Source: a virus (taxonomy: Duplodnaviria > Heunggongvirae > Uroviricota > Caudoviricetes). Taken from it: a stretch of DNA of 64,000 bases. Below are positions 10,400 to 64,000 of this stretch, in pieces. The notes beneath the pieces were generated by a model, which was not told the DNA's origin, ran no database searches, and saw nothing but the letters and a program-made list of their open reading frames with translations. The position numbers and the translations under genes were made by a program. How positions within the stretch are numbered: the first letter of the stretch is position 1; the number at the start of each line of letters is the position of its first letter. The stretch is taken from positions 1-64,000 of IMG/VR virus record IMGVR_UViG_3300022660_000063, one strand, 5' to 3'.

Positions 10400-10408
10400 T
10401 GTATTAAA

Positions 10409-10808: not shown

Positions 10809-10882
10809 TTTTATATAAATATATTCAAAATCGGTTTGCTTTTTGTTAATGATAGTATATAATTATAATATAGGAGGTTAAC

Positions 10883-12134: not shown

Positions 12135-12148
12135 GGAGATAAGAGAAA

Positions 12149-20853: not shown

Positions 20854-21009
20854 TGGTAGTAGTAAAAGAATCTTATAATATAAATAATGAATTAGAACTT
20901 AATATATGTTCTACTTTTCTGTATATTTTATATAAAGATAAGATAAACAAAGGTTTAGCAAATATCACATTTGAAAATAATATTTTATATTACAGGGAGA
21001 TTGTATAAT
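20854..21009 (+). CDS. possible small ORF (51 aa)
   Basis: AAGGAG RBS then ATG; fills the gap between P4 and the PARP gene. Confidence 0.3.
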
Positions 21010-22177
21010 GAATAAAAAGTTAATATGTGTTACACCTAACAATAATAATAAGTTTTACAATATGACAGATCTCGGTGACGGTACTTTCGAAGTTGAATAT
21101 GGAAGAGTTGGAGCTACAAGTGTAAAAACTTCTTACTCTATGTCTCAATGGGATAAAAAATACAATGAAAAAATAAAGAAAGGGTATGTTGATATAAGTG
21201 AATCTTTATCTCAAGACATTAAAAAAGCTTCTTTAAAGATAGATGATAAAGATGTTAAAGATTTAATTTCATTTCTTATGAGTTGTGCAAAACAGTCTAT
21301 CAAATCAAATTATGAAGTATCACTGGACTCAATTTCAGATATTCAAATAAATAAAGTCCAAGAAATATTAGACGAGTTGAATGACTTGGATTTAACAAAA
21401 TTACCTTATAATATTATAAATAACTATCTTCAAAAGGTGTATACAACTATACCAAGAAAAATGTATGATACAAGAGCTTTTTTCTTAAAACCTAATTACA
21501 CTAAACAAGAATTTATAGAATTATTACAAGAAGAACAAAATAAACTCAACACACTTAAATCACAAGTTAATTTGAATACCCAATCTAATAAAATTGAAGA
21601 TATAACATTAGAAACACTTGGGTTTGATTGTAGATTAGCAACGCAAGAAGAAAGAGAATTTATAGCTGCCAATACTGATTTTAGAGTTAATAATCAAAAA
21701 ATATTTAGAGTTACAAATCATGAAACTGAGAAAGTATTTAATCCAGATAATCTTAAAACAAGACTTTTATATCATGGAAGTAGAAATGAGAATTATCTAA
21801 GCATTATGCAAACAGGGTTAAAAATTAGACCTAAGGGTGTTGTCTTAACAGGTTCGATGTTTGGTAATGGTATATATGCAGCTAATAAAGCAAGAAAAAG
21901 CATTGGTTATACATCATTAAGAGGTAGTTATTGGGCATCTGGCTCAAGTAATAAAGCTTATCTAACTATATTTGAATTTGCTACAGGTCAAGAATGGCGA
22001 ATTTTAGATAATGAAAGTTATAAATCTTGGATGGGCAGGATTACTGAAGATCAAGTTAAATCACAAAAATGTAATTCAGTATTTGCTAGAGGTGGTGCTG
22101 ATTTAAGAAACGATGAATATATTGTATATAATAGTAATCAATGTACTATTAGATATATAATTGAAATAAATAATTAA
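21008..22177 (+). CDS. poly(ADP-ribose) polymerase-like protein (WGR domain plus PARP catalytic domain, H-Y-E triad)
   Basis: N-terminal WGR-like 'FYNMTDLGDGTFEVEYGRVGATSVKTSY...KIKKGY'. C-terminal 'LLYHGSRNENYLSIMQTGLKIRP', 'GSMFGNGIYAANKARKSIGY', 'NDEYIVYNSNQ'. Confidence 0.8.
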   Translation: MNKKLICVTPNNNNKFYNMTDLGDGTFEVEYGRVGATSVKTSYSMSQWDKKYNEKIKKGYVDISESLSQDIKKASLKIDDKDVKDLISFLMSCAKQSIKSNYEVSLDSISDIQINKVQEILDELNDLDLTKLPYNIINNYLQKVYTTIPRKMYDTRAFFLKPNYTKQEFIELLQEEQNKLNTLKSQVNLNTQSNKIEDITLETLGFDCRLATQEEREFIAANTDFRVNNQKIFRVTNHETEKVFNPDNLKTRLLYHGSRNENYLSIMQTGLKIRPKGVVLTGSMFGNGIYAANKARKSIGYTSLRGSYWASGSSNKAYLTIFEFATGQEWRILDNESYKSWMGRITEDQVKSQKCNSVFARGGADLRNDEYIVYNSNQCTIRYIIEINN

Positions 22178-27998: not shown

Positions 27999-28081
27999 AT
28001 ATTTAGATAAAGTAGAGAAGAATGGTTCTTTCAAGAAAAATTATTTTCTTGAAAAAGTAGAATTATATGAGGAGGAAGAAA

Positions 28082-29236
28082 ATGCTTAAAACTATTCAAT
28101 TTATGAAGAGTCATGAAAATTGGAGAGAGTTGCTACAAGCTGCTCCTTATAATTTATTCATAAACGAAGATGAAAATTATGTATTATTAAAATATAATCA
28201 AATAAACTCAGATTTTAATGAAGATATATGCAGAGAATGTAGAGGTCTTATTATAGACAAAAATATTTTAGAGCCAGCAGCTTTATCTTTCTATAAATTT
28301 TTTAATGTCCAAGAAAGTTTTGCTGATAAGATAGACTGGGATAGTGCAAAAGTATTAGAAAAAGTAGATGGATCTAAGATGCTTGTGTGGTATGATGATT
28401 ACTTACATAAATGGAGGGTGTCTACTTCAAGTGAATTAGATGCAAGTAATGCTCCTGTTGGAGACTTTGGAATATCTTTTAGAGATTTATTTGACAGAGC
28501 TCTCTCAAATTATACTTTTCCAAACAATTCTTCTATGTTTGAATGCTTGAATAGATTATACTGCTATACATTTGAATTAGTAACTCCAGAATCTAGAGTA
28601 GTTGTTCCATATAGAAAAGATGCTTTATACTTGATTGGCGTAAGATGCAAATTCGCATTTGAAGAGTTAGATCCAAATTCTCTTGAGTTGAGTAAATTTA
28701 TTAAAACTCCAAAACAATTTCCTTTTCAAAATTTAAAAGAATGCTTGAATAGAGTAGAATATATGGGCTATGATGAAGAAGGATTTGTTGTAGTAGATAA
28801 ATATTGGAAAAGAATTAAGATTAAATCACCTGCATACGTAGCTGCACATTATTTAAAAAATAATGGAGTTAATTCAAGAGCAAAAATTCTTTCAATTATA
28901 GAAAAGAATGAGCAATCAGAATTTTTAGGACTATTCCCAGAATATACTGATTTATTTAATGAAATAGAAACTAAATATAAAGAAATGCAAAATAAAATAT
29001 ATGATGCTATTGATGATATGTTATTTAAAAGTAATACTTTCCTCTATGAAAATGAAAAAGAAAAACGAAAAGAACTAGCTAATTATATTTTAACTGAACA
29101 TAAAGACTTATCAGGGTTTCTATTTAAATATTTAGATATAGACCCAATAGAATATTTTATAAAGCAAGAATGGAAAGAATTATCTAAAGATAAGAAAATG
29201 AATTTATTAGGTTATAAATTAGAAAAAGAAGATTAA
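28082..29236 (+). CDS. RNA ligase 1 (T4 RnlA-like)
   Basis: 'ECRGLIID' (T4 ECRGIMF), 'KFFNVQES' (KFFNLNENP) and motif I 'EKVDGSKML' (TKEDGSLVS); GAGGAGG RBS then ATG 28082. Confidence 0.75.
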   Translation: MLKTIQFMKSHENWRELLQAAPYNLFINEDENYVLLKYNQINSDFNEDICRECRGLIIDKNILEPAALSFYKFFNVQESFADKIDWDSAKVLEKVDGSKMLVWYDDYLHKWRVSTSSELDASNAPVGDFGISFRDLFDRALSNYTFPNNSSMFECLNRLYCYTFELVTPESRVVVPYRKDALYLIGVRCKFAFEELDPNSLELSKFIKTPKQFPFQNLKECLNRVEYMGYDEEGFVVVDKYWKRIKIKSPAYVAAHYLKNNGVNSRAKILSIIEKNEQSEFLGLFPEYTDLFNEIETKYKEMQNKIYDAIDDMLFKSNTFLYENEKEKRKELANYILTEHKDLSGFLFKYLDIDPIEYFIKQEWKELSKDKKMNLLGYKLEKED

Positions 29237-32581: not shown

Positions 32582-33062
32582 ATGTGTTAAATGCGGAAAT
32601 GAAATTTTAACAGGAGATATCCATTGGGAAATGGGCTTATGTAACAACTGTTATAATGAATTATATAAAGACCATAAAACTCATATTAGTTTGGATAATA
32701 TGTGGTTGAAACTTGCTCAAGATTTTAGAGATGAGAACGAAAAATTGCAAGACAAGGTAACCGACCTAGAAGCAAAACTAGTATTGAAATCTTCATTTAG
32801 TAAGTTTACATTATCTGACGAGTTATATAAATTATATATAAATTTGGAAAGAGAATATACAAAATCAAGCCAAGAAATTGCTGAGAGAGGTAAAGAAATT
32901 GAAAAATTAAGAGTTATGTTAGATACCTCTTTAACAAAACTCCATAAAGCAAGGAGGAAAATAAATAGAGTATTATTGAAAATAGCTAAATTTGAAGCCG
33001 AATTAGATAATTATACTATACAAAATGAAACTTTCTTAAAGAGAGGCAATCAGCATGAATAA
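32574..33062 (+). CDS. zinc-ribbon plus coiled-coil hypothetical protein (GTG start)
   Basis: CVKCGN...CNNC. Confidence 0.35.
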   Translation: MSKCVKCGNEILTGDIHWEMGLCNNCYNELYKDHKTHISLDNMWLKLAQDFRDENEKLQDKVTDLEAKLVLKSSFSKFTLSDELYKLYINLEREYTKSSQEIAERGKEIEKLRVMLDTSLTKLHKARRKINRVLLKIAKFEAELDNYTIQNETFLKRGNQHE

Positions 33063-34035
33063 AGATATAAAAATAATAGGATTAGACATAGCAGAAGATA
33101 GGTTACCTAAACTGGTTGTGATGTGTGGTTTGCAAGGTTCCGGTAAATCAACTATTGCAGAAGAATTGAGTTTGAAATATAACATGATTGTATTATCTAG
33201 TGATAAATTAAGAAAAGAATTTCCAGATGAGAACAATGAATTTATTTTTAGACGCTTATATAATCAAGCAAATATAGCTTTGAAACAAGGATTAAATGTT
33301 ATCCTAGATGCAACTAATATTACAATTAAATCTAGAAAACAAATATTTTTAAATATAAAAGAACCTTGTAAAAAGATTTGTTACATAGTAAACACGCCTT
33401 ATGAAGTATGTATAGAAAGAGTTAAAAAAAGAAATGAAGATATAAATTCTCATCAAGTTCCATTAGAAGTGGTTAGAAGATATTTAGAATCTTTTGAAGT
33501 ACCTTTTTATGAAGAAGGATGGGACAACATATTACTGTATAATATTATAGGGCATAATGAGTCTGTAGAAAATTTTAATAATATGATGAAATCTGCATTT
33601 GGATTTGACCAACATAATAAACATCATACTCAATTATTACATGAACATTTAGAATCGGTTGCTAATCAATTATATGATATAGATAATGTTTTATATGAAG
33701 CAGGATTATTACATGATATAGGCAAACTTGATACGCAGACATATAAAGAAAATGACCCTAATGCACATTACTATAATCATGCCAATGTTGGTGCTTATAA
33801 AGTATTATGTAATTATATGTCTTGGTATATGATAGAACAATTAGGAGAAGATTATCCTAAATATGATACTACATTAGATATAGTATTTTACATAAATTAT
33901 CATATGCATATGTATAATATTAAAACTGAAAAATCTGAAAGGAAGTGGAGACAAGTATTTGGGGATATAAAATTTAATAATTTAAAATTGTTAAATGAAG
34001 CTGACCAATTTAATCATAGTAAGGAGATAAAATAA
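33055..34035 (+). CDS. polynucleotide 5'-kinase (T4 Pnk-like P-loop) fused to an HD phosphohydrolase domain
   Basis: Walker A 'MCGLQGSGKST' and 'ILDATNITIKSRKQ' (Pnk-like); C-terminal 'HHTQLLHEHL....GLLHDIGKL....YNHANVGAY' HD motifs. Confidence 0.75.
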   Translation: MNKDIKIIGLDIAEDRLPKLVVMCGLQGSGKSTIAEELSLKYNMIVLSSDKLRKEFPDENNEFIFRRLYNQANIALKQGLNVILDATNITIKSRKQIFLNIKEPCKKICYIVNTPYEVCIERVKKRNEDINSHQVPLEVVRRYLESFEVPFYEEGWDNILLYNIIGHNESVENFNNMMKSAFGFDQHNKHHTQLLHEHLESVANQLYDIDNVLYEAGLLHDIGKLDTQTYKENDPNAHYYNHANVGAYKVLCNYMSWYMIEQLGEDYPKYDTTLDIVFYINYHMHMYNIKTEKSERKWRQVFGDIKFNNLKLLNEADQFNHSKEIK

Positions 34036-41964: not shown

Positions 41965-43689
41965 ATGATATTGAATGAAAATATAGGACTTGCTCCAGTA
42001 GAGAAAGAAGATCATGGTGAAGTTGATCAAACTTATGCAGCTGCTATCAGAGATATAGAAAAAGCAGAAAAAAAGAAAGCAGAGTTCACTAAAATACAAG
42101 CAGAACCTAAACATGATGAAAAACCAAAAAATCCTAAAATGGTTAGTGGTGCAAAGAAAATGCATTTAGATGAAAGTTTGTTTGAAGATATTTTAGATGA
42201 AAAGAAAGAGAAAACTAAAGAAGATATATTAGATGATTTATATGATGAATTACGTAAAGCTAAATATCTAGTTAACGCAGATCCAATTGGCTATAGGATA
42301 GGAAAGAGACAACCTGAAGGTCAGATACAACTTAGTAGAAAAGATAAATCATACGAATTTATAAAAGATGAAAAAGATCTTGATGATGCTAAAGCAATCG
42401 TAGATAAGTATGGCTTTAAGTATTATGTTAAATCAACATTAGGTATACCTTCTCTTTATATAGACACTGAAAGCTTAGAAGAAGAAATATATAGCACTTC
42501 TGGCGCAGCCGGCAAAGAAATGTCTTTTGATATAAAAGATGATGGAACTATCGTAATATATGATGGTGATAAAATAGTTAAGCAAAGCAAAACAAATCCA
42601 ACATATGCTAAACAAGTTTTAAAAGATTTGGGGTTTAAAGAAAAAGAAATTATTAAAGAAGATATTAATAATTTAGAAAAAGAATTTACTATTCATTATA
42701 ATAGAGAGGGATTTGAATATGGTGGATATGGTGCAGTAAGAGTTAAAGCTTCTAATGAAAAAGAAGCTAAAGAGAAATTCTTAGATGAGAAACCCGATAA
42801 AGATATTGAAATAACTTCTGTAAGACCAACTGAAAATGAAGATATTAGAAAAGGTATCAGATTGTTAGAAGATACTGAGATAGTTAAAGAATCTTTTGAA
42901 GACTTCTATGCTCAATTTGATATTAGACCTGAAAGAAAAATAAAAGAAGTTTACGCAGAAATATCCCCAGAAGAATTTCAATTAGATAAAATACACCCAA
43001 CAAAAACTATCGCTGATATATGGTCAGAAATGCAATCAGGAGAAGATTTTTATAGAATAGCTTCAGAAGATGGAGAAGGCTTCGATAGCGCAGTAAGAGA
43101 AGGCATATTTGAAATTATATCTAAAGCTTTTAAAATCCCATATGATACAGTTTATTTAACTTGGAGAAATGGTGGCAAGTTAGAAGAATCTTTTGAAGAT
43201 GAACAAAAAGCGGCAGAAGAAAGAGCGAGAGAAGAGACTATTAAAAAAATGGTTAAAGAAAGAGAAGAAGGTTCTCTCGGTGACAGAATTGAAGCTGCAG
43301 AATTAGAACAAGAATTAAAAGAAGATTATACTGATGGAACTACTATCGAGGATGGGGGTGAAATAACACCAGATTCAATTCAACCAGGTCCAGAAGCAGG
43401 ATTAGCAGCTGAATTAACTAAACTAATTAAAGAAGAATGAGACGCAATTCAAGATTATAATGATGCTATAGTAGCAGCAGAATTAGAAGGTTATCATGAT
43501 ATTGCAAAAGTATTTAAAGATATAGTTAATGAAGAAATGAACCATGTAGGCATGCTTGAAACTTCTTTAAGCACAATATCTCCTAATACCCAGACTATAG
43601 AAGACGGAGAAGCAGAAGCTTCTGATATATTAAATGAAATACCTCACGAAGTTATGGATGAAGACCCTGAAGAAGGTATGCATTATTAA
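41965..43689 (+). CDS. large acidic protein (574 aa) with in-frame TGA=Trp at 43438; C-terminal ferritin-like 'EExxH' segment
   Basis: ORF 41965..43440 continues through TGA: '...LIKEE[W]DAIQDYNDAIVAAELEGYHDIAKVFKDIVNEEMNHVGMLE...' to TAA 43687-43689. Confidence 0.5.
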
Positions 43690-43711
43690 TATTTAAAAGG
43701 AAGATAAGAAT

Positions 43712-44191: not shown

Positions 44192-45058
44192 ATGTCATAT
44201 AATTTATTACTTGATACAAAATTTGAAAACGATCAATGAAAATTTATAAACTGCAGATATGAAAATGGCAAACTTACTTCTAGTTCAAAAATATTTGGTA
44301 TTGAACAAGAATTGATTTTACCAGATCTAACAAAATTATATTTCAGATGTAATTATATGACTGCTTCGAAAGATATCACAGAAGTTAAGATAGGCATACT
44401 TAATAAAAATACTTTGGATATAGATAAACGTTTCCCAAAATATTTAAAATGGAATAATATATCAGTCATAGATTACAGCAAGCAAGAGAAAATAAAAGTA
44501 CATCTAATATTTGAGTCTACAGAAGATATCAACGAAGTATATATAAAAGAACCAATATTAGTAGATTTAAATTATTTACATAAATCTACATGGTTAAAAA
44601 TAATACTAGATAGAACTATAAATTATCTACCTGGCTATTCATATAAAAATGAGTATAAAGAATTACAATTAACTGAAAATAATACTGATTTTAATGTGCT
44701 AAATAGAGAACAAGCTAAAATAGGTTTAATAATTAAAGAAAGTGAAAATAAAGAAGTTACTTTAAATGCTAAATTTATTAGTAATAGGTATTATCTCGTT
44801 AAACTAGATTTTGAAGAAATAAATCAATTAGGTAACCTTTATTTCAAATATGGTTTTTTGAAATCAACTAGAATAAAAGATCAAATATATTTAGTGTTTA
44901 AAGCTAGAGAAAATGAAGACTTAAAATTAATAATTGAACCTAATTCAGAATTATCTTACTGGTTAAATATAAAACATCTGATGATAATTGAGATAACGAA
45001 ATTAAAATTATTAAGAGAAGATATAATAAATCTTCCATATATTGAAGGAGACGCATAA
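44192..45058 (+). CDS. hypothetical protein (288 aa) with in-frame TGA=Trp at 44237
   Basis: AAGGAG RBS then ATG 44192; 'MSYNLLLDTKFENDQ[W]KFINCRY...' joins in frame to track ORF 44312..45058. Confidence 0.5.
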
Positions 45059-45927
45059 TGCAATTTAAAAAATTATTAGAAGATATTAACGACGGGTGGG
45101 AGTTAGAAGATAACTATGATGTTGATTTAAATGTATTAGATGACATGAATAGTTTTATCTATGAGATAAGAAATACTATAAGAGGCGCATATACTAAAGC
45201 AACTACTTATAAAGAATTAGCTACATATATTAGAAATGATCTAATACAGCCGTTAGAATACTTAGCTCAAGATATTGAAAATATAAAAGAAAATGATATA
45301 GATGAATCATTAAAAGAATCTAACGAGGAAATAGAAGATATATCTTATTTAATATTCGATAGTACATACGGCAATAAAGAAGTAGAAGAATTAGATGTTT
45401 CATCCCTTAGTGAAGTAGATCATTATTATAAACTAATTAAAACAGTCAATGAAGCTGAAAAATTTAATTATCACTCAGATTACTGAGGTTATGATGAAGA
45501 TTATCAAGAACAAAATACTGAATTAATAAAGGCTTTAAGTCCTTTTATAAATAAAACTGTTGAAATTGAATATGAAGATGGTTATATAAGAGGTAAACTT
45601 TTAGGTATAGCGATTGATAGACAATATAATAGTATAAGTCACACTAAGGTTATCTTAGATACAATCGAAGAAGTAGCAGAAGAATCTCTAAATGAAACAG
45701 CTGAATTAGATAAAAAAGTATCTATATTAAGAAAGAAAATAAGTATGCTAGATGATAAGGGCTATAAAGAAGGATATGATAAAGTAATAATATCTAACAA
45801 TATAAAAGATACCATTGAAAATCATTTAACAAGATATAAAGATGAGTTAGCAAAAATTTATGATAGTGAAGAATTCTTCGAAGAAGATAAATTAGATTTA
45901 GATGAAGCGCATGGGTTAAAGGAGTAA
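45058..45927 (+). CDS. hypothetical acidic protein (289 aa) with in-frame TGA=Trp at 45484
   Basis: Track ORFs 45058..45486 and 45745..45927 are in the same frame and continuous, with no other stop: '...NYHSDY[W]GYDEDYQEQ...'. Confidence 0.55.
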
Positions 45928-45929
45928 GA

Positions 45930-52784: not shown

Positions 52785-54134
52785 ATGGGAAGAATACTTA
52801 ACAAAAGCCCTCTTAGCAATAAACTTTTTAGTTTAGAATCGGTAAACTTTGTTACTACAGCTAAAGTTTCTACAGGCACTTATTTATGCCGCGCAGTTGA
52901 TATTGACGGGACAGTTTTAAAAGAAGAATGGCTTAATACTGGAGACATTTTTACTTTGCCTGCCTTACCAACTAATCATGATAGATTAGTTGCAACCGGT
53001 TGGGTGAGCTCATGTCCTGATTTAGACCAAGCAGGAACCTCGACAGTTGTAACTAAAAGAGATATAATGGCTGGACCAGTTTATGAAACTAAGAGCGGAA
53101 TGGTTGAAGTAATAGTTGAAATAACTGAAGATATTGCTCCTAATATAGAAACTGAGGGACACACAGTTACTGTAAATTTTAACGGTACTAAATATTGGGA
53201 TTACGAGGGAGATAAAACCATTACTGACACCACTAACACTCATACTTATTATTCATATGGGACTTATATTATCGCGATTGAGGGAGCAACAGGATATGAT
53301 AGTACAGAATATATATTGTCATCACATGCTATAAGAAAATTGTATTTTACATCGAGTGATAATGGGCCAGAAACTTTAATGAACATAGGTCATCGCTATA
53401 ATTGTTCAAATTTAACAGAACTATCATTGGGAGCAAAGATAAAAAGTCATATAACTGGTCACTTTAATTATGTATTTCCGAAAGCGGTTATATATCCCGC
53501 TGGATTGGAGTCTTTTCAAAACATTTTAACGAATGCTAATGACCTAGTTATTCCATCTACGGCAGTTTTTACACTTTCTGCTAATATCGCACCATCGGGC
53601 ATTATCAAATACCCCACATTAGTATTTGATAAATGTAATACGACTGGTCACTATTTGCGATTAGCATCTATAAGAAATTCTGTTGCAAGGCTTAATTGGC
53701 CTAGAGAAAACTATGGGACAGACTCTATACTACAAACTCTCACTGAAGGAACTCATATAGTTGACTTGGGTTGTATTACAAGTGTGCCAGCGATAAGTTT
53801 TTCACCAGATGAGACTCTTGTTTTTCCTGCTACAGTAACTAGTTTGTACGCTAGTACACAATTCCGAAATTGTTATAATTTAACAAAAATTATATTTGAA
53901 GGTGATATAACTGATGTCGGTAGCACTCCTTTTAATTACTTAGAGAGAATTCAAATTATAGACTTTTCTAAAAATACAGTGGTTCCAACCTGTTCTAGTT
54001 TTAGTGATACATATCTATCAACCAATTATAAAATTATTGTACCAGATAGTTTATATGATGAATGGATTTCTACCGCTCCATGGAATATTGTTGCAAATCA
54101 TATCTATAAGAAAAGTGAAATAAATTATAGTTAA
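52785..54134 (+). CDS. BspA-like leucine-rich-repeat protein (putative receptor-binding/adhesin), locally higher GC
   Basis: Repeats such as 'NCYNLTKIIFEGDITDVGSTPFNYLERIQIIDFSKNTVV' fit the BspA/TpLRR pattern. Confidence 0.45.
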   Translation: MGRILNKSPLSNKLFSLESVNFVTTAKVSTGTYLCRAVDIDGTVLKEEWLNTGDIFTLPALPTNHDRLVATGWVSSCPDLDQAGTSTVVTKRDIMAGPVYETKSGMVEVIVEITEDIAPNIETEGHTVTVNFNGTKYWDYEGDKTITDTTNTHTYYSYGTYIIAIEGATGYDSTEYILSSHAIRKLYFTSSDNGPETLMNIGHRYNCSNLTELSLGAKIKSHITGHFNYVFPKAVIYPAGLESFQNILTNANDLVIPSTAVFTLSANIAPSGIIKYPTLVFDKCNTTGHYLRLASIRNSVARLNWPRENYGTDSILQTLTEGTHIVDLGCITSVPAISFSPDETLVFPATVTSLYASTQFRNCYNLTKIIFEGDITDVGSTPFNYLERIQIIDFSKNTVVPTCSSFSDTYLSTNYKIIVPDSLYDEWISTAPWNIVANHIYKKSEINYS

Positions 54135-54548: not shown

Positions 54549-56183
54549 ATGCCAATATATTTTAATAATAATAAAGTTGGAGCGGCTTTAGAGTTAAAAA
54601 ATTTACAAGAAAAAACTGTTACTGAAAATAATATAACAGTTACTCCAGACCCTGGTTATAATGGTTTATCTTCTGTTGATGTAAATATTGTTACTGGTGA
54701 TTATAATATAGACCAAATCATAGATGGCGATGAATGTGAACTTATTATTTCTACACCAACTGGAGATATAACTATTGATCTACCTGAAGCGTTTGCAAAT
54801 ATGACAACCTTATATTATTTTATTGTAAATAAAGATACGATTTTAATTAGCAGTAATATAACTGATATCGGCGTTTGGGTATATACTGTAAGTACTAACA
54901 CGATTGAACAAAAATATACTATTGGTTCTAGTTGGCGATATTTCCAGATGGTAGGTAACGATTGTTTAATTGGAGGAAATATCTCGTCTTCTGTCGGAGT
55001 ATTATTATTTAATAACACTACCAAAACAATAGAACTAAACTATGCATCAGGATATCATTGGGACACTTTTAAGATAATAGATAATGATTGCTTTATTAGC
55101 AATAGTCTTAATCATAGTGGTTATGGAGTAGGGCTTTTGCTATACGATAGTGCTACAAAAACAATTGAACTAAAACATCCATCAGGATATCACTGGGATA
55201 AGTTTACTGAAATAGGCGATGATGTTTTAATTAGTGGATTATATGCTACTGGAATTTTACTTTATAATAAAATAACAAAGACCTTAGAACAAAAGTATAC
55301 AAACTTTCTAAATTGGAATCATTTTTATGTAGATGGTAGCAATTGTTGGATTGGAAATGATACGGCTGATACAGGAATATTATTTTATGATGGTTCAATT
55401 AAAACAATTGAACAAAAATACGATATCGGTGCTTGGGCTTATTTTCAAAAGATTGGCGATGATGTTTTAATTGGTGGCAGGTCTAGAAATGGTATTTTGT
55501 TATACGATGGAATAGATAAAAGCTTTATTCAAAAATATACTAGCAGTGATGATTGGTATTTGTTTACTCCAGTTAATAATGATGTTGTAATAAGTTGTAG
55601 TTCTACAGGAATATTATTATATGATGGAGCCACTAAAACAATTGAACAAAAATATACTATTGGTTCTTATTGGCAATATGTTCAAGTTGTCGGTAATGAT
55701 GTTTTACTTTGTAGTGCTACAACTAATACTGGTGTGGTAGTCTATGATGGTTTGACTAAAACTATAACTCAAAAATACACTAGCGGTGCTTGGCTATATT
55801 TTCAAATTGTAGGTAATGATTGTTTAATTGCTACAACAACTGCTAATGCTGGGCTTTTACTATATGATAGTATATTAAAAGAAATAAGTAAAATATATAG
55901 TAGGGAAACTGGTTGGAGAAATTTTAAATTAGTGGGTAATGATTGTTTAATTGGCTCTTCGGGTAGATATGGTACGGATGGGCGAGGACTTTTATTATAC
56001 AATAGTGATACTAAAACAGCAACGATATTAAACAGCCAATTTAGCTTATGGAATACGTTTATAGAAGATGGTGATAACTGTTATATTGAGTCAAGCAATA
56101 AGTCTTTAAACCCATATATAATCTATTATAATGCTACAACAAAAACTGCCAAATTCGCAAAATACTATATAGGGAAGGTGTAA
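54549..56183 (+). CDS. beta-propeller-like repeat protein (about 12 repeats of roughly 40 aa), tail fiber/receptor-binding candidate
   Basis: Repeating 'GILLYDGxTKTIEQKYTxGxxWxxFQxVGNDVLIG'; C-terminus 'AKFAKYYIGKV' shared with 56362..57990. Confidence 0.5.
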   Translation: MPIYFNNNKVGAALELKNLQEKTVTENNITVTPDPGYNGLSSVDVNIVTGDYNIDQIIDGDECELIISTPTGDITIDLPEAFANMTTLYYFIVNKDTILISSNITDIGVWVYTVSTNTIEQKYTIGSSWRYFQMVGNDCLIGGNISSSVGVLLFNNTTKTIELNYASGYHWDTFKIIDNDCFISNSLNHSGYGVGLLLYDSATKTIELKHPSGYHWDKFTEIGDDVLISGLYATGILLYNKITKTLEQKYTNFLNWNHFYVDGSNCWIGNDTADTGILFYDGSIKTIEQKYDIGAWAYFQKIGDDVLIGGRSRNGILLYDGIDKSFIQKYTSSDDWYLFTPVNNDVVISCSSTGILLYDGATKTIEQKYTIGSYWQYVQVVGNDVLLCSATTNTGVVVYDGLTKTITQKYTSGAWLYFQIVGNDCLIATTTANAGLLLYDSILKEISKIYSRETGWRNFKLVGNDCLIGSSGRYGTDGRGLLLYNSDTKTATILNSQFSLWNTFIEDGDNCYIESSNKSLNPYIIYYNATTKTAKFAKYYIGKV

Positions 56184-56361: not shown

Positions 56362-57990
56362 ATGATAACAGATTTAAATAAAAAAGTTAAAAAGATAACA
56401 GTAGATGGCGTTACAATGGAGCTTAAACCTAAAGTTCTCGGTGGTGATTATAACCTTGAAAGTGTACTTTTAGAAGATGGTACTCAAAAAATGGTTGCTA
56501 CTTTTGTTGGTACTGAAGGTCAGGAGATTGAAGTTGAGCTACCTGAAGAGTTCCAATCAGAAGGTAGTTATGGCATTGTTACATTTATATATAAAAATAC
56601 TATATTGATGAGTACTACTTCAGCTGATGTTGGATTATGGGTTTATAATATAGACACTGATAAATTTACTAAATTAAGGAATGAGGCTCAATGGAATTCA
56701 TTTTATGAAGTATCAGATGGGGTTTTATTATCTAGTAAGTCTTCAAATACGGGTCTACTTCATTTTGATGGTATAAACTTAACTCAAATAGAAGGTTCTT
56801 CAAGTTATTATAATATTAATATTGGGCATACTCTTAAAAATGGAGATTATTTATTTAGTTCTCAAAATTTACAAAATGTAGGTTTATGTTATTATAATAA
56901 TGAAACAAAAACATTAACTCATATTGGTTCAGATACAGTAAATAATTTTTATGAATTAGAAAATGGTGATACTTTATGCTCTTATAGTTCATCTGCAAGT
57001 ATTGGTTTATGGTTGTTTGATTTTAATTTAAAAATAGCGACAGAATTAGACTCTATGATAGCTAGATTAACTTGGACACCGCTATCTGATGGTAATTTAG
57101 TCGGTACAAGTTCTATTTCAGGTGCTGCTGGTGGTTTGCTAGTATATTATAAAGAAACCAAAACTACAACTAGATTTCTAACAGCCAACTATGCAGATCA
57201 AACTGAGTTCACAGTAGTGAAACCTCTATTAAATGGGGATTTTATAGTAAGTAGATCAAACTCAAATACTCAAGGTGTTTATTTATATAAAGCGAATGAT
57301 ATGACTTTTAATAAAATATTTGAAGAAGGTTATAATTTTAATAGTTGCACAGTATTAGAAAGTGGTAACGCAATAATCAGCAGTAGTTCTTCAAATGTTA
57401 AAGGGATTTATTTTTATAATAATACCAACAATACTATAAGTCAAATATATCAAGATGGATATGGTTACAGTAATCGACATGTAGTATCAAGTGACTTGTT
57501 GTTGCTATCTAATTCAAGTTCATATTATGGGACAGGTTTGTTTTTATATGATGATAGTACTAATACTATTACTCCTCTATTAACAGATGAGTATAACATG
57601 TATGGGTTAAACACAAAAAATGGTGCATTAATAGAGCAATATAATGGTTCAAAGATTTGGTTTTTTAACAAAACATCTAAAGAACTTAATGTATTGCTAG
57701 AGGTGTCAACTTATGCTAATATATTTGATAATTTAATCAAGCCTAATGAAAATATTATATTATTCAATACTAACAGCGTATATTCAGCACCATTATTTCT
57801 ATACAATGAAAGTGAACATAGTATAGAAAGATTATTAACTAGTTCAGGTAGTCAGTTAGATAGATACTTTATCAAAGATAATCTTGTTAATCTATGGTCA
57901 AGTAAAAAGAGTAGTCAACCAAAAACATTCGAATATAATATTGATACTAATACAATAAAACTAGTAAAATACTATATAGGAAAAATATAA
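56362..57990 (+). CDS. beta-propeller-like repeat protein, paralog of 54549..56183
   Basis: Similar roughly 40-aa repeats and C-terminus 'IKLVKYYIGKI'. Confidence 0.5.
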   Translation: MITDLNKKVKKITVDGVTMELKPKVLGGDYNLESVLLEDGTQKMVATFVGTEGQEIEVELPEEFQSEGSYGIVTFIYKNTILMSTTSADVGLWVYNIDTDKFTKLRNEAQWNSFYEVSDGVLLSSKSSNTGLLHFDGINLTQIEGSSSYYNINIGHTLKNGDYLFSSQNLQNVGLCYYNNETKTLTHIGSDTVNNFYELENGDTLCSYSSSASIGLWLFDFNLKIATELDSMIARLTWTPLSDGNLVGTSSISGAAGGLLVYYKETKTTTRFLTANYADQTEFTVVKPLLNGDFIVSRSNSNTQGVYLYKANDMTFNKIFEEGYNFNSCTVLESGNAIISSSSSNVKGIYFYNNTNNTISQIYQDGYGYSNRHVVSSDLLLLSNSSSYYGTGLFLYDDSTNTITPLLTDEYNMYGLNTKNGALIEQYNGSKIWFFNKTSKELNVLLEVSTYANIFDNLIKPNENIILFNTNSVYSAPLFLYNESEHSIERLLTSSGSQLDRYFIKDNLVNLWSSKKSSQPKTFEYNIDTNTIKLVKYYIGKI

Positions 57991-58547: not shown

Positions 58548-59705
58548 ATGACTCAAAATTTTAAAGGAATAGTAAGACTATCTAATGAAAATTATTTAAC
58601 ATTATCTACAACAGGAACTCTTACCTTAAAAGATGGTTCTACTTTAACATTTGACCCAACATCTACTTTATATATAACACCAGATTCAACTATTGATTTT
58701 ACTCAAGAAGATAAAGATAAAGTAGAAGTTATAGATATATCTGGAGATGGTACTCAATTTTTATCTAATGATGGTAGTTATAAAACCATTAGTGGGGTAG
58801 AAGTAATAACAGGTACACGTTCAAATCCTGTAAATTGTAAAAACCTAGAAATAAATAAATTATATAATGTACAAGGTTATATAGTAGGGACATCTTCTCA
58901 AAGTAATCCTACTTATATTATAGATAATTCTCTATTTATTTTTAGATTAGATAGTACTAGTCTAGTTTCATTTAATTATATTTATTCTATTAATGGGTTT
59001 AATCGATGTTTAGGTGGTTCATCATATTTTGATATCAATGAGAATGGATATATGACTAGCGGAGGTTCTGGTTGCGCAATAAATATGTTTAATGGAAAGT
59101 ATGGTGAAAATAATATTATGATCTATGCTCCAACTTCAAGTGGTATTACAGGACAGGTATTGCAATCGAATGGCTCTAGTGCTGCACCAACCTGGATAGA
59201 CTTGCCAGATGCTTTACTACAATTAAATGGTACCGAAGATACTCCTATTAATTTATACAATGATTTAGAAGTAAATAAATTATATTCGATAAGTGGAGTT
59301 ATTTATAACTCAGATAATAATCTAACAGCAAATGATTCAATATTAACTTACAAGACAAATACCAATTTATTGTATTTAATTGGTGGAAAAATAGATTTGT
59401 TAACAAATGAGTTATCATTCCAACCAAATTACTTTACAATAGCAGAAGTAGAAGCTACAGGAGAAATAAGTACACATCAATCTAGTATTGCTCCAGTTAA
59501 TTCAGGGACATCTGGTCAAGTACTAACAAGTAACGGCCCAGATCAAGAACCAACTTGGGAAAATAGTTCTTCTGTAAATATAGACAACACAACTATAACA
59601 AGAAATAACTCGGATAGCATTCAAGCAGTTGGCTTAACAAATGGGTCCGTAAATCTAACTTGTGATAATATCTACGATGCCCTAGCAAGTGACTGGGAGG
59701 TGTAA
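58548..59705 (+). CDS. tail fiber protein sharing C-terminal domain with 51006..52784
   Basis: AAGGAG RBS; C-terminal 'ITRNN...NIY.A...WEV' domain. Confidence 0.5.
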   Translation: MTQNFKGIVRLSNENYLTLSTTGTLTLKDGSTLTFDPTSTLYITPDSTIDFTQEDKDKVEVIDISGDGTQFLSNDGSYKTISGVEVITGTRSNPVNCKNLEINKLYNVQGYIVGTSSQSNPTYIIDNSLFIFRLDSTSLVSFNYIYSINGFNRCLGGSSYFDINENGYMTSGGSGCAINMFNGKYGENNIMIYAPTSSGITGQVLQSNGSSAAPTWIDLPDALLQLNGTEDTPINLYNDLEVNKLYSISGVIYNSDNNLTANDSILTYKTNTNLLYLIGGKIDLLTNELSFQPNYFTIAEVEATGEISTHQSSIAPVNSGTSGQVLTSNGPDQEPTWENSSSVNIDNTTITRNNSDSIQAVGLTNGSVNLTCDNIYDALASDWEV

Positions 59706-59706
59706 A

Positions 59707-59931
59707 ATGGGACAAGTTATAGTAAAAAGTCCATCTTCTGGAAGTACCTTTAATCTTATGTCATGTGTTTCAATGGGAGATATGACATTTAAAGATGCTG
59801 TTCAATTTTATGATATGACTTTTAAATTATATAAAACAAATTACACGATAAATGAACAGGATTATTCAGAAGAAAATTTAGAAGAATTATCCAGTATTTT
59901 ATCTACATTAGCATTTGGAGGAAATAATTAA
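59707..59931 (+). CDS. small hypothetical protein
   Basis: GGGAGG RBS then ATG 59707. Confidence 0.35.
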   Translation: MGQVIVKSPSSGSTFNLMSCVSMGDMTFKDAVQFYDMTFKLYKTNYTINEQDYSEENLEELSSILSTLAFGGNN

Positions 59932-59932
59932 T

Positions 59933-61243
59933 ATGACAATGACAGCAAGTCAACTTTTTAAAGTTACATCAATTTTAGAAACTGCAAGACAAGATGGCGT
60001 TAAGAATTTAAAAGCAAAAGGTATAACTATTCCAGATAGTTCAAGTATTCCTGCTATTATTGGTAATATAAACAATATAACAGGTCAAACTATCATAAAT
60101 ACTACGGAATTAAAAGCAACTGGGGATAGAATAATTACAGCAGCAGACCTACCTAATACAACTTTTACTTTGTACAAAGATGATAGTTTACTACAAACAC
60201 TAACAAATGCTGATGAAGCTTATGTGGTAGCGTTTTCAGTTACTGATGATGGTGAGTATATAATAAAAGCAACCAGAGATTCTGAAGAAAAATGGCAAAA
60301 TAGTATCAATGTACAAGGTGTTGGTCAATACAAATGCACTATGAAATACTATAATGAAGTAACTAAATCTGCAATAGGTAATTACATACCAACTTATAAA
60401 TCTTTAAAATATACATGGGAAGAATTGCAGGAAATTTCTGAAGCAGGATTTGGAGAATATGTATTTGAATTTGATGGATTTGAATACATGCAAACTAATT
60501 TTATGGCTAAAGGAGCAACAAGTGAATATAGCAGAGCTTATTTAGTGCATATAGATGAAGAAAATAACTTAATATTTTGTTATTATAATTTCAATAGCAC
60601 ATATAAAATGTTTAATACATCTGGAACAAATAGTAATGGTATATCTTGGATGGGATGCATACCAAGAACAAATTCATTACCAGCAGGCGCTACTCAATAC
60701 ATATATGATTGGACAGTTACTGATTCAACAAATGGTACATATTATAAATACGAAATAGAAGCTTCTACATTTGTTCCTGTATTATTACCAGATGAGTACA
60801 ATAATGAAACAAAATATTACAAGAAAACAGAAATTGCTGAAGATGGTGTGTTCTTAGCTTCATTAAAAGAACAATTAGGAACAGTTAGCCCAAGATTAAA
60901 AAATATCAAAACATGGCAAGGTTGTGGTGCTGGGGTTACAGTGAGCACAGATGATTTAATATTAACAACTCAAGATTATATGTGGCTACCTAGTGATAGC
61001 AATATATTTGGTGACACTAAGAGATTTGATGATTACTCTAAATTCTGGCTTGAAGGAGAAACATTTAAAGCATTTAAGAATTATAACGAGATATTATTTA
61101 GATTCTCAAGTAGTGCTAGATGGCTTAGATCCCCTTACGTTCCCTCTTCTTCGAACTATTTCTGTACTTGGTACATCCATGGTTATTCGTCCAACACCAA
61201 TATGACGACTAGTTTTTCTGTTCCTCTCTGCTTTTCAATCTAA
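59933..61243 (+). CDS. DGR target (variable) protein, receptor-binding candidate; VR occupies the last about 35 codons
   Basis: C-terminus '...SPYVPSSSNYFCTWYIHGYSSNTNMTTSFSVPLCFSI' corresponds codon-for-codon to TR 'YPYVNSSSNNFCNWNNNGYSNNNNMTNSNYVPL' (AAY codons in TR). Confidence 0.75.
   Translation: MTMTASQLFKVTSILETARQDGVKNLKAKGITIPDSSSIPAIIGNINNITGQTIINTTELKATGDRIITAADLPNTTFTLYKDDSLLQTLTNADEAYVVAFSVTDDGEYIIKATRDSEEKWQNSINVQGVGQYKCTMKYYNEVTKSAIGNYIPTYKSLKYTWEELQEISEAGFGEYVFEFDGFEYMQTNFMAKGATSEYSRAYLVHIDEENNLIFCYYNFNSTYKMFNTSGTNSNGISWMGCIPRTNSLPAGATQYIYDWTVTDSTNGTYYKYEIEASTFVPVLLPDEYNNETKYYKKTEIAEDGVFLASLKEQLGTVSPRLKNIKTWQGCGAGVTVSTDDLILTTQDYMWLPSDSNIFGDTKRFDDYSKFWLEGETFKAFKNYNEILFRFSSSARWLRSPYVPSSSNYFCTWYIHGYSSNTNMTTSFSVPLCFSI
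61132..61236 (+). repeat. DGR variable repeat (VR)
   Basis: About 105 bp; 17 mismatches to TR, every one at a TR adenine. Confidence 0.8.
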
Positions 61244-61256
61244 TAATCTAAATAAT

Positions 61257-61278
61257 CTGTTCGCCGAAAGGTGAACAG
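61257..61278 (+). promoter_or_regulatory. hairpin with GAAA tetraloop immediately 3' of VR (DGR target-recognition stem-loop)
   Basis: ctgttcgcc-gaaa-ggtgaacag: 9-bp stem (one G-T pair). Confidence 0.6.
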
Positions 61279-61303
61279 TGAGTATATAAAAGGAAATTTT
61301 AAC

Positions 61304-61699
61304 ATGGTTCCATCGTATATGAGAACATTAAGTAAAACTCAATATGTTTATGAAAGTGTTATGCTTAGAAAATTAGTAGCAAGCACTATTGTTAATAAAT
61401 TCTCTAAAAAATATACTTTCTATGGGCTACAATCAACATTTAAATTAATAGATAGAGTTATGCAATGTTGCGTACTTGCTAATCAATGTGATTTGACAAC
61501 AAGTTTTGAAAAACGAAGAGAATTATTGACAGAAGCTCTACACACTTTAAATTTATTCTCTATTGAATTTGAATGCATATTGGAGTATAATAATACTATC
61601 ACAGATGGAATGCTTAATAAGATATTTGAAAAAACTGACTACCTAGAAAAATTAATTAAAGGTGTTATAAACTCGGATAAGAAACGAGTTTCAAAATAA
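61304..61699 (+). CDS. avd: DGR accessory variability determinant (Avd-like, 131 aa)
   Basis: Small basic helical ORF between VR and TR, the canonical position and size for Avd; AAGGA RBS. Confidence 0.6.
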   Translation: MVPSYMRTLSKTQYVYESVMLRKLVASTIVNKFSKKYTFYGLQSTFKLIDRVMQCCVLANQCDLTTSFEKRRELLTEALHTLNLFSIEFECILEYNNTITDGMLNKIFEKTDYLEKLIKGVINSDKKRVSK

Positions 61700-61721
61700 C
61701 ATTGGTGTGCGGTTGATTATA

Positions 61722-61826
61722 CCCTTACGTTAACTCTTCTTCGAACAATTTCTGTAATTGGAACAACAATGGTTATTCGAACAACAACAATATGACGAAT
61801 AGTAATTATGTTCCTCTCTGATTTTA
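61722..61826 (+). repeat. DGR template repeat (TR)
   Basis: Non-coding copy of VR, rich in AAC/AAT. Confidence 0.8.
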
Positions 61827-61979
61827 CTTAAATAATGCCAGACATAGTAGATATTTATTGAAACCGGCTAAATTAATAAAAGGAACCGCACTTCCATAGC
61901 AATTAAAAGCTAAAAATAAAAACCTCCTAATATATTTTACTCAAGATTAGGAGTAACTAATATTACATAGGAGATTATA

Positions 61980-62993
61980 TTGAAAAATAAAACTTTTAAA
62001 GAAGTTTTTACATATAAAAATTTATTGGTTTGTGCTAATCTATGCTTTAGAAATGTTAGATGAAAGCAAAGCATCCAAAATTTTGAAATTCAAAAGCATA
62101 GATTAGTAAATAGAATATTTAGACAATTGCATGCTGGGAGTTACAAATCACCTGGATACTTTGAATTCACTAAAAGCTGCAGAGGAAGAACTAGAAATAT
62201 AAAAGCTGCACATATTAGTGAAAGAATTGTACAAAAATGCTTATGTAGATATTACTTAAACAATCTACTCGGAAGATCCTTAATATATGATAATGGAGCT
62301 ACAATAAATGGTAAAGGCTATATATTTACTTTAGATAGATTATTTGTACATTTAAATAAATACTATAAAAGATATCATACTAATGAAGGTTATATATTAA
62401 AGATAGATTTTAGCAAATATTTTGATAATATAGATCATAATATTCTATTAAGTAAAGCAAGAAATTATATAAAAGACGATAAGATATATAATCTGTATAA
62501 ACATTTTATAGAGAAAGCCAGTAGAGAGAAAGGAATAGCATTAGGAAGCGAAATTTCGCAGATAAATTCTTTGTTCTATGTTAATGAGTTAGATCATTTA
62601 ATCAAAGAAAAATTACATATTAAATTTTATGGTAGATATGTAGATGATTGTTATCTGATATGCAGTAGTAAAGAAGAATTAAAAAACTGTCTGCGAGTAA
62701 TATACGAAGTTTGTAATAAATTAAAAATAATTATAAATAAAAATAAGACAACTATCAGTAAATTAAAACAATTTACTTGGTTAAAAATTCAATTCCGTTT
62801 ACAATCTAATGGTAAAATAACAAATAAAAATTCATATAAAACTCGAAAGAACTTATTTAGAAAAGAGAAATACCTTAGATCAAAATATGGGATAAATAGC
62901 AACCAATACACCAATTATAAAGGTTCATTTGAAGGTTATATAAAGGAGTATATACATGTTCAAGGTAAAAGACGAAATAAAAATACCTTTTAA
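61980..62993 (+). CDS. DGR reverse transcriptase (337 aa; TTG start, in-frame TGA=Trp at 62061)
   Basis: RT motifs 'ILKIDFSKYFDNIDHNIL' (A/2), 'GIALGSEISQINSLFYVNELD' (B') and 'YGRYVDDCYLI' (C, YxDD). The N-terminal 'FKEVFTYKNLLVCANLCFRNVR[W]KQ' DGR-RT-like region is reached only by reading through the TGA; AGGAG sits 7 nt upstream of TTG 61980. Confidence 0.8.
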
Positions 62994-63204
62994 AAATATA
63001 TCTAATAATATATTAGCAAATGGTAATGAATTAACATTAATTGATAATGAGGGTACTTTTATTTATACAAACAATAAGTGGTACTTGAGTAACGAATACG
63101 TTAATAATATGTTTATGGGTTATGGATTCAAACCTAACTTCTCTCTAGAAACTAAAATTGAGAAAGAAGGCTTTGACGACATATTCGAAGAAATTAAGGA
63201 GTAG
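62956..63204 (+). CDS. small hypothetical protein
   Basis: 82 aa, overlaps the RT 3' end. Confidence 0.35.
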   Translation: MFKVKDEIKIPFKNISNNILANGNELTLIDNEGTFIYTNNKWYLSNEYVNNMFMGYGFKPNFSLETKIEKEGFDDIFEEIKE

Positions 63205-63207
63205 TAA

Positions 63208-64000
63208 ATGAAAGTTCTTAATAAAGCAGATTGGTATGGTACAAAAGCTCAATATTTAGCTTTATCTTCTATTGATTCAAGTAAAAAATATTTTATAATA
63301 GATTTACCTAATTATAGTATCTCTAATGCGGATATGGAATTAGCTACAACCATAGAATCTAGTTTATACAAGACAGGAGATGTGTTTATATGTAAAGATT
63401 CTGGCACCTACTTGCAAGGACATATATATAAATTTAATAAAGATACAACAAGCTCTAACTGGATAGATATTTCAAGTAGTATTGGTGCTACAGGGAGTTC
63501 CTCATTAGTTTCAGATAGTGGTCAATTAACCTTTAGCGTTGATTCGGTATCAGATGTAGCATATTTAAAAAGTAATAAACCATTGCATATAGGTGAAGGA
63601 GCTACTGACTTAAGTTTAGATTGTGATACTTTTCAAGTATTCACTGAAGATGGATGGAATTGGGAAAGTACAATAACAGATGAAAATGGGGATGAAGATA
63701 CTGCTAGATTCTCATTCCAGATGGGAAATATAACTTTATCTAATAGTAATCAGGGTGTGCATTTAAATAAAGCAACAGACCAAATAATTCTTCAAGCTAG
63801 TTCTATTAGAGCAAATACAAGTACAGCTGATTTAGGTACTTCCGCTTTACCTTGGAATAATATATATGGTAAAACTATCTACCAAAATGGTCAACAAGTT
63901 GCAACAAAAGCAGAGGCTGCTTTATATAAGCATAATGTCTCAATAAATGGCACAAATGATTCTGGCCAACAAATAAATGCTAGAGTAGTTGGTTTAAATA
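63208..64000 (+). CDS. tail-fiber-module protein, 3' partial (runs off window); N-terminus paralogous to 54226..54543
   Basis: AAGGAG RBS; open frame to the window end. Confidence 0.5.
   Translation, partial: MKVLNKADWYGTKAQYLALSSIDSSKKYFIIDLPNYSISNADMELATTIESSLYKTGDVFICKDSGTYLQGHIYKFNKDTTSSNWIDISSSIGATGSSSLVSDSGQLTFSVDSVSDVAYLKSNKPLHIGEGATDLSLDCDTFQVFTEDGWNWESTITDENGDEDTARFSFQMGNITLSNSNQGVHLNKATDQIILQASSIRANTSTADLGTSALPWNNIYGKTIYQNGQQVATKAEAALYKHNVSINGTNDSGQQINARVVGLN

Follow-up and report, generated by a model that had tools for sequence, protein, structure and literature searches.

Diversity-generating retroelements (DGRs) are already common in gut phages, and the element described here is of this known kind. 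In the DGR of BPP-1 (mtd-avd-TR-brt), a target gene with a C-terminal variable repeat (VR) is followed by the accessory gene avd, the template repeat (TR), and the reverse transcriptase (RT) gene, and the two repeats differ only at adenines. A hairpin with a GAAA loop reportedly lies downstream of the BPP-1 VR. Features expected of a DGR include a VR within a ligand-binding fold that tolerates variation (C-type-lectin-like or Ig) and, in many but not all systems, Avd, a small four-helix-bundle protein encoded beside TR. Several RNA motifs have been described as RT-associated RNAs, one of which, RT-10, sits between TR and brt in BPP-1 (PMC5737381). The DGRs of Roseburia phage Shimadzu and of Faecalibacterium phages have also been described (PMC11792537), and in Clostridia gut phages the VR of DGR targets is borne by DUF6273, a C-type-lectin-like domain (PMC10743442, PMC11792537). 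Recoded stop codons inside DGR RT genes are known from zeta crAss-like phages, where amber (TAG) suppression affects seven RT genes (PMC12386605). TGA-recoded "Agate" phages of ~150 kb have been reported from animal guts, in a paper that does not mention retroelements (Borges et al., bioRxiv 10.1101/2021.08.26.457843). Here we analyze a 64,000-nt stretch of DNA from a caudoviricete virus (positions 1 to 64,000 of IMG/VR record IMGVR_UViG_3300022660_000063), below called the window, near the end of which an earlier note had proposed a complete DGR with the layout target-VR-hairpin-avd-TR-RT. Every structural element of this layout was located in the sequence, and the reading that we favor, at a probability of about 0.92, is a complete, recently active DGR of a phage with a genome of ~154 kb and 28% G+C.

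The anatomy of the cassette is directly visible: target, VR, hairpin, avd-like open reading frame (ORF), TR, structured spacer, and RT follow each other in this order (Table 1). As the earlier note had it, VR at 61132-61236 and TR at 61722-61826 align without gaps over 105 nt, at a constant offset of 590 nt. There are 16 mismatches in this interval; a 17th (C at 61131 against A at 61721) is gained by a 3-nt upstream extension to 61129/61719. Thus, the proposed restriction of mismatches to TR adenines stands, whereas the proposed count of 17 applies to the extended alignment and not to the original one. Adenine specificity is demonstrated directly, as every mismatch has A in TR and C or T in VR. 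With 34 A in the 105 nt of TR, the probability that 16 random mismatches would all fall on A is ~7e-10. The AAY hallmark of adenine mutagenesis is also present: of the 13 AAC/AAT codons that TR has in the VR frame, 10 are changed in VR, where they specify P, Y, T, Y, I, H, S, T, T, and F.

Could the two repeats have arisen by simple tandem duplication, without any retroelement, and have diverged through chance or composition-driven mutation? A 107-nt repeat does exist, and nothing further speaks in favor of such an origin. On the other hand, the mismatches all lie at the A of one copy only, and an RT gene, an Avd-like gene, and an RT-associated RNA adjoin the repeats. The identical asymmetry is observed in four diverged cassettes with the same gene order (L007, L009, L028, and L030), where 17/17, 19/19, 16/16, and 22/22 mismatches, respectively, fall on TR adenines. 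The mismatch statistics, the related cassettes, and the natural variants described below effectively refute a tandem duplication, and its probability is negligible. No further TR-like copy and no second VR for this TR were found in the 64-kb window (the other ~90 kb of the genome were not searched).

Natural genomes provide the second line of evidence. The exact 131-aa protein of the cassette recurs on at least 24 contigs, which come from many samples; several of these contigs are ~154.4 kb long, which places the window in a phage genome of ~154 kb. The activity data described here come from assembly consensus sequences and not from reads. Four proteins make up the 90%-identity cluster of the target, with nearly all of their differences in the final 36 residues, and the DNA of its members was compared with the window base by base. 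An assembly from the European Nucleotide Archive (L004) has 12 differences from the window over 8,068 nt, all of them in VR at sites where TR has A; three of the 12 changes are reversions to A, as expected for a VR overwritten by a fresh TR copy. Another genome (L005) shows two differences, again both in VR at TR-A sites, and a third one (L006) has the same VR as the window and three ordinary single-nucleotide polymorphisms (SNPs) elsewhere. Since L004 and L005 differ in VR alone, and L006 with its unchanged VR has acquired three SNPs, VR changes faster than the background. Further, TR does not differ among the six assemblies examined, and the three VR alleles together show substitutions at 24 of the 36 TR adenines. 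The substitutions in the VRs of the window, L004, and L005 (17-21 per allele) are A-to-C or A-to-T only. The population check suggested in the earlier note, namely VR variability at TR-adenine sites, is therefore positive: otherwise identical genomes differ in VR at these positions only. Such directly observed diversification of VR supports recent mutagenic retrohoming.

A less favorable interpretation of the same data is that the cassette is a fossil, now inactive, and that the VR variants are old alleles sorted among lineages or exchanged by recombination. It would agree with the low number of alleles (three in total, with 22 contigs sharing one VR), with the strong reduction of the spacer RNA relative to Rfam RT-2, and with the catalytic motif of the RT, YVDD (62637-62648) instead of the YMDD found in 117 of 119 homologues. 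Against it, L004 and L005 show no other differences over 8 kb despite their different VRs, whereas L006, with the same VR, has three SNPs. All copies have the same, intact TR, RT, avd, and hairpin, and all 14 VR differences are at TR-A sites, other sites showing no decay. We consider a fossil very unlikely, and a recently active element remains the preferred reading. Two additional scans were made. An exact-pattern scan for the VR flank in a metagenome contig collection that does not contain this phage gave no match, and an RT-profile scan of metagenome contigs and IMG/VR returned only relatives with at most 43% identity.

The RT gene is the component that standard annotation obscures. Its frame is open from 61971 to 62993 if the sole in-frame TGA (62061-62063) is read through, and the Shine-Dalgarno sequence AGGAGA (61969-61974) is located 5 nt upstream of the TTG at 61980. 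The product matches Pfam RVT_1 (E = 1.6e-19), and among solved structures the BPP-1 bRT is its closest relative (8ub7_A, E = 5e-10), with an alignment that begins at residue 8, ahead of the TGA. Homologues at E <= 1e-5 number 542, of which 119 were aligned; the TGA column is covered by 116 of them and contains Trp in all 116, within the conserved motif V-x-W-K-x-S-V-Q. Motifs LGSEISQ (residues 188-194) and YVDD (residues 220-223) correspond to LGSxxSQ and YxDD, which are conserved in the 119 homologues. Judged by these motifs ([LIV]GxxxSQ in motif 4, and YxDD) and by the PDB match, the enzyme is of the DGR type. The RT motifs, the YVDD, the TTG initiation, and the TGA=Trp codon proposed in the earlier note are thus all confirmed, given the RVT_1 match, the Shine-Dalgarno sequence, and the Trp column. 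The nearest RTs of annotated phages (30-35% identity) belong to DGRs of Clostridia gut phages, including Roseburia phage Shimadzu (34.5%), Faecalibacterium phages Lelie, Roos, and Pioen (~30%), and phages nd4 and nd12. In two short contigs, Tyr at RT residue 215 (62622-62624), five residues before the catalytic motif, is changed (KFYGRYVDD to KFDGRYVDD).

The same gene can be read as a pseudogene, either truncated by the TGA after 27 codons or started only at the TTG at 62127 and hence lacking its N-terminus, which would make the cassette non-autonomous. Indeed, the standard-code ORF comprises 288 aa from 62127, exactly as in public gene calls. However, the N-termini of bRT and of the 119 RTs show homology to the 27 codons that precede the TGA, Trp is invariable in the TGA column, and a good Shine-Dalgarno sequence precedes 61980 but not 62127. 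The TGA is kept in six assemblies, and the same codon is TGA in L007. Moreover, TGA is read through inside conserved domains elsewhere in the window, and the phage encodes tRNA(UCA). A pseudogene is thus highly improbable. The integrity of the RT under TGA=Trp is directly apparent from these alignments; the predicted enzyme is full-length and intact, and the apparent premature stop is best read as a Trp codon, because TGA=Trp is explained by genome-wide recoding.

The recoding itself is sparse: the window contains 10-11 in-frame TGA and 209 TGG codons, so that TGA accounts for ~5% of Trp codons. Matches to the Pfam families SSB, Form_Nir_trans (FNT), and Rubrerythrin cross in-frame TGAs at 4247, 9288, and 43438, respectively, and six genes that seem to be terminated by TGA run on in frame to TAA or TAG. 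Under translation table 4, the stop codon is TAA or TAG in each of the 84 genes, and the coding fraction increases from 0.896 to 0.911, with the gaps at 4893-5680, 43441-43711, and 45487-45929 becoming coding. Sequence comparison thus identifies TGA as a sense codon, predicted to encode Trp, throughout the window and the phage. Genetic code 25 (TGA=Gly) was considered and rejected, as TGA aligns with Trp. Standard-code calls cut or miss several genes, for instance at 5095-5586, 41965-43689, and 45058-45927. In L007, a 149-kb contig with an RT 52% identical to that of the window, TGA is the main Trp codon, and its target contains nine TGA to one TGG. Five of these nine TGA codons align with Trp in the window target, as does the single one in the small ORF discussed below, in addition to the shared RT codon. 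The lineage spans very different degrees of recoding, from almost all Trp codons in L007 (region 312-12868 compared) to ~5% in the window phage.

A decoding tRNA is available on the same contig. A 97-nt tRNA with anticodon UCA is encoded ~4.1 kb upstream of window base 1 (L096 5205-5301), near a cluster of 12 tRNAs (L096 367-1926) that includes tRNA-Trp(CCA). It scores 38 bits against the Rfam tRNA model, has a long variable arm of 6 bp, and is called as a selenocysteine tRNA by ARAGORN. This tRNA is likely an opal suppressor. One may speculate that, in a standard-code host, the phage's own UCA tRNA gates RT synthesis and through it hypermutation, the TGA at codon 28, shared with L007 at the same invariant Trp, being a conserved control point and not a product of synonymous drift. 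The affinity of the RT to Clostridia and the presence of both tRNA-Trp(CCA) and tRNA(UCA) in the phage hint at a standard-code host. We rate such gating as rather improbable.

The ORF of Avd size that the earlier note had placed between VR and TR was analyzed by homology and by structure prediction, and both indicate an Avd-like protein. An exhaustive phmmer search yielded 21 representatives, 17 of them full-length, and phrog_3206, "Avd protein of DGR", is hit by 13 of these 17; a word-based homologue search was empty. A profile of the accessory proteins from the five closest cassettes aligns end-to-end with the accessory proteins encoded beside distant RT relatives (hhalign probability 97.5%, E = 5.5e-12). 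The single-sequence AlphaFold2 (AF2) model consists of four long helices, with a predicted local distance difference test score (pLDDT) of 79 in one of five models. Foldseek ranks 2gsc and 2rld first and Avd 4dwl_E (template modeling score 0.81, root-mean-square deviation 2.4) next, all with weak E-values, as is usual for helical bundles. From these comparisons, we accept the protein as a putative divergent Avd. Searches of PDB sequences with the accessory protein and the target, both singly and as profiles A3, A4, and A9, produced chance hits only (gp41, WD40 designs, agrin).

Several cis-acting elements can be recognized around the repeats. The hairpin CTGTTCGCC-GAAA-GGTGAACAG is separated by 13 nt from the TAA stop codon of the target (61241-61243); the 9-bp stem, with one G-T among its nine pairs, and the GAAA tetraloop agree with the earlier note, which had counted 14 nt. 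Folded as DNA, the hairpin has an energy of -7.9 kcal/mol (z = -6.4 relative to shuffled sequences). Hairpins with 4-nt loops (GGAA, GAAA, GAAA, and GTAA) are present a few nucleotides past the target stop in the four related cassettes, two of them being weak. Since there is no T-run 3' of the stem, the hairpin is not an intrinsic terminator; the scan for promoters and terminators gave nothing above chance. At the 3' end of VR, the TGC codon of an invariant Cys corresponds to TGA in TR, 4-5 bases before the homology ends, in all five cassettes (61229-61231 in VR and 61819-61821 in TR of the window, and the same spot in L007, L009, L028, and L030). Positions 61231 and 61236 are invariant among the VR alleles. 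Because the five cassettes have the TGC/TGA difference in common and the VR alleles are uniform at this site, the last two VR/TR mismatches (61231 and 61236) are probably fixed markers distinguishing the initiation of mutagenic homing sequence (IMH) from its TR counterpart (IMH*), and not products of mutagenesis. If they are, information transfer would end 5' of 61231, in or before the A-free GTTCCTCTCTG.

The 141-nt spacer between TR and the Shine-Dalgarno sequence of the RT resembles the Rfam motif RT-2 (RF03077) in its position between TR and RT and in its architecture. It scores 28.8 bits over the full model, below the gathering score of 40 bits, with E = 6e-4 when 5 kb are searched and 5e-5 when the search is confined to 401 nt. 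The spacer keeps four elements of RT-2, namely the 5' hairpin, the AAAAGGA..CUUCC segment, the small hairpin, and the closing stem, whereas the internal domain of 102 model positions is replaced by 13 nt. Matches of 24-38 bits occupy the same position in L007, L009, L028, and L030. In 9 of 20 distant relatives RT-2 is found directly 5' of RT at 133-167 bits, and L011 has a match of 68.8 bits. By the Rfam criterion the spacer is not a member of RT-2, and it is best described as a putative reduced RT-2-like RNA. This assignment rests on the five syntenic RT-2 matches; the MAFFT alignment of the five sequences is out of register at the inner helices.

In six independent assemblies, the gene call for the target is 436 aa long. 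The target belongs to a family of seven members with the invariant C-terminal frame W-x-R-S-P ... F-C-x-W ... P-x-C-F. DUF6273 is matched by six of the seven, and a VR variant of the target (P0002) matches it over residues 343-436 at 27.7 bits, above the gathering score of 23.5. Thus, the C-terminus is plausibly of the DUF6273 type and C-type-lectin-like, the fold being suggested by the Pfam assignment and the literature. A tblastn search of the target against annotated phages gave no match. The genes around it encode large repeat proteins: an LRR_5 protein (52785-54134), a 959-aa LRR_5 protein downstream, and, just upstream of the target, two paralogues that are candidate host-recognition proteins, one of which has a weak beta-propeller match. 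These adjacent paralogues of ~543 aa (54549-56183 and 56362-57990) consist of repeated G(I/L)LLY(D/N)..TKT(I/L)E.KY units and share the C-terminal sequence KYYIGK(V/I). In relatives, a T4-type portal gene is located within a few kb of the target, and L007 has an Mtd_N-domain protein nearby.

The earlier note went beyond this evidence in assigning the target to a tail-fiber cluster with a role in tropism switching, as no neighbor matches a tail-fiber family in Pfam or PHROGs. A receptor-binding protein in a tail-fiber cluster is plausible, and binding of a host receptor may be expected from the domain type. A different possibility is that the DGR is genuine and diversifies some other virion-surface protein or secreted adhesin (a decoration protein or a "tentaclin"-like protein), and not for host-range switching. 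The absence of tail-fiber matches for the target itself and its neighbors agrees with such a function, as do weak Ig-like matches at target residues 72-115 and the occurrence of DUF6273 in non-tail DGR targets such as tentaclins (PMC10743442). In contrast, the position of the gene within a block of LRR_5 and beta-propeller-like repeat proteins, the T4-type portal close by in relatives, the Mtd_N-domain protein of L007, and a C-terminal VR in a lectin-like domain, which is the arrangement of Mtd, all favor a tail protein. We regard a non-tail target as unlikely, but as an alternative that deserves real weight next to the receptor-binding protein.

Several observations weigh against a complete and recently active DGR. 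The 131-aa accessory protein of the window has no relevant match (E <= 1) in Pfam, NCBIfam, or PHROGs and none among PDB sequences. The window's own target allele matches no curated family, DUF6273 included; as DUF6273 matches P0002 and not this allele, VR content shifts the score. The AF2 model of the target, built from the seven-sequence alignment, has a pLDDT of 53, and below 50 across VR, and the neighborhood is devoid of tail-fiber matches in Pfam and PHROGs, as noted above. No G+C-rich IMH of the BPP-1 type is found at the VR 3' end, and the spacer falls short of the RT-2 gathering score. The long variable arm of the UCA tRNA, which is type-II-like and unlike that of a Trp tRNA, is unexpected, and charging of this tRNA with Trp is a tentative assignment. 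There are no A-to-G changes in any of the three VR variants, though relatives such as L007 do show G; their absence could reflect selection on the encoded residues or a misincorporation bias of the RT. Finally, 22 of ~26 contigs carry one and the same VR, and the element may be active infrequently, with slow turnover of VR, or the samples may share a source.

Taken as a complete DGR, the locus suggests the following mechanism, modeled on BPP-1. The RT and the Avd-like four-helix-bundle protein would jointly bind a transcript spanning TR and the RT-2-like spacer. TR would be reverse-transcribed with misincorporation solely opposite adenines, and the product would recode up to 13 AAY codons and a few other A-containing codons in the DUF6273 ligand-binding domain. 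The direction of transfer from TR to VR would probably be set by the VR 3' end (TGC-TTTT-C against TGA-TTTT-A in TR) and by the GAAA-loop hairpin 20 nt 3' of it. Translation of the RT would begin at the TTG, and the codon-28 TGA would be decoded as Trp, because the phage overall uses TGA as a sense codon and carries tRNA(UCA). The RT-Avd-RNA complex, the steps of priming and retrohoming, and the roles of the hairpin and IMH in this scheme are borrowed from the BPP-1 paradigm.

Comparison with the described systems suggests that the element works like that of BPP-1 and is nearest to the DGRs of Clostridia gut phages. As judged by similarity, the RT, the accessory protein, the target domain, and the spacer RNA are homologous to DGR components. 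With BPP-1 the locus shares the component order, the C-terminal VR, the adenine-only differences, the GAAA-loop hairpin just 3' of VR, and a structured RNA between TR and RT; bRT is the nearest solved RT, and the predicted accessory bundle superposes on Avd 4dwl. Unlike BPP-1, it lacks a G+C-rich IMH, its spacer is related to RT-2 and not to the RT-10 of BPP-1 (PMC5737381), the target domain is DUF6273 instead of Mtd, RT identity is low, the RT gene has a TTG start and a recoded TGA, and the genome is AT-rich and ~154 kb in size. The DGRs of Clostridia gut phages resemble it in having VR at the C-terminus of a DUF6273 domain (PMC11792537, PMC10743442), and many relatives in this clade have an RT-2-type RNA 5' of RT. 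These phages are, however, smaller (33-55 kb) and use the standard code, in contrast to the ~154-kb, TGA-recoded phage considered here. Further differences from them are the N-terminal part of the target, which has no match in annotated phages, the very divergent Avd, and an RT-2 shorter by ~90 nt.

The phage also resembles recoded lineages. Like zeta crAss-like phages, it appears to be a large gut phage with a suppressor tRNA and a recoded stop inside the DGR RT, so that standard-code calls hide or truncate the RT; the codon is opal (TGA) here, not amber. A crAss-like identity was rejected on gene content (NrdD, DNA ligase, and the RNA-repair set, with a T4-type portal in relatives). It can be likened to Agate phages by size and code: the genome is ~154 kb, TGA encodes Trp, and close relatives differ greatly in TGA usage. 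Megablast of positions 59000-64000 against INPHARED gave no match, and the phage has no close relative among annotated phages.

Table 1. Features of the retroelement cassette and in-frame TGA codons of the window
Feature	Coordinates	Strand	Description
DGR target gene	59933..61243	+	436 aa; C-terminal ~95 residues plausibly DUF6273-type, carrying VR
VR	61129..61236	+	Last ~36 codons of target; population-variable sites span 61137-61218
VR 3' end	61219..61236	+	A-free invariant GTTCCTCTCTG, then C-TTTT-C; probable IMH-like boundary
DNA hairpin/cruciform candidate	61257..61278	+	9-bp stem with one G-T, GAAA loop, 3' of VR
Accessory gene	61304..61699	+	Putative divergent Avd-like protein, 131 aa
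TR	61719..61826	+	Non-coding; 13 AAY codons in VR frame
Structured spacer RNA	61833..61973	+	Between TR and RT; putative shortened relative of Rfam RT-2 (RF03077)
DGR RT gene	61980..62993	+	337 aa; TTG start; TGA (Trp) at codon 28 (62061-62063)
Small conserved ORF	62956..63204	+	82 aa; overlaps RT 3' end; cassette-linked, DGR membership uncertain
In-frame TGA sites	689, 4247, 5245, 5455, 9288, 11672, 34906, 43438, 44237, 45484, 62061		

One more gene travels with the cassette. Homologues of the small ORF that follows the RT (82-87 aa) occur in all five related cassettes and usually overlap the RT 3' end (window 62956-63204; L007 6965-7219; L028 7041-7289; L030 7007-7270). In L009 (5036-5299), the ORF is placed between the target and avd, not 3' of RT. 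The family has the motif M[FY][KR][VL]K ... KW[YF] ... GYG..P.F ... FE and no family match in scans of Pfam and PHROGs. It could be a further component of the cassette or merely a linked structural gene.

The remaining gene content of the window, as judged by homology, points to a large myovirus-like phage, with NrdD, DNA ligase, an RNA-repair set, a PARP-like protein, and SPFH proteins. NrdD (5681-8776, 1,031 aa) contains an in-frame GIY-YIG nuclease domain (residues 480-555) between the NRDD halves, an insertion that could be intein-like or intron-ORF-like. The RNA/tRNA-repair set consists of an RlaP-like nucleotidyltransferase (13809-14897), a CCA-adding enzyme (16817-18088), an RnlA-like RNA ligase (28067-29236), and a kinase with an HD domain (33055-34035). 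The window also encodes a PARP-like ADP-ribosyltransferase (21008-22177), an SPFH protein (12149-13195), and a peptide deformylase (1250-1969). Genes of these types are typical of large phages that counter tRNA-targeting defenses.

In summary, near-identical natural genomes that differ only in VR at TR adenines directly document the activity of this retroelement. Its RT is truncated by standard-code calling, and all components except the RT escape curated profiles; for these reasons, such elements are probably under-counted in recoded, AT-rich phages. The compact RT-2 spacer and the very divergent Avd may help to define the essential parts of the DGR ribonucleoprotein. If the RT were indeed gated by the opal suppressor, two phage-specific innovations would be linked: mutagenic retrohoming would be switched on only while the code change of the phage is in force, coupling hypermutation to stop-codon recoding.

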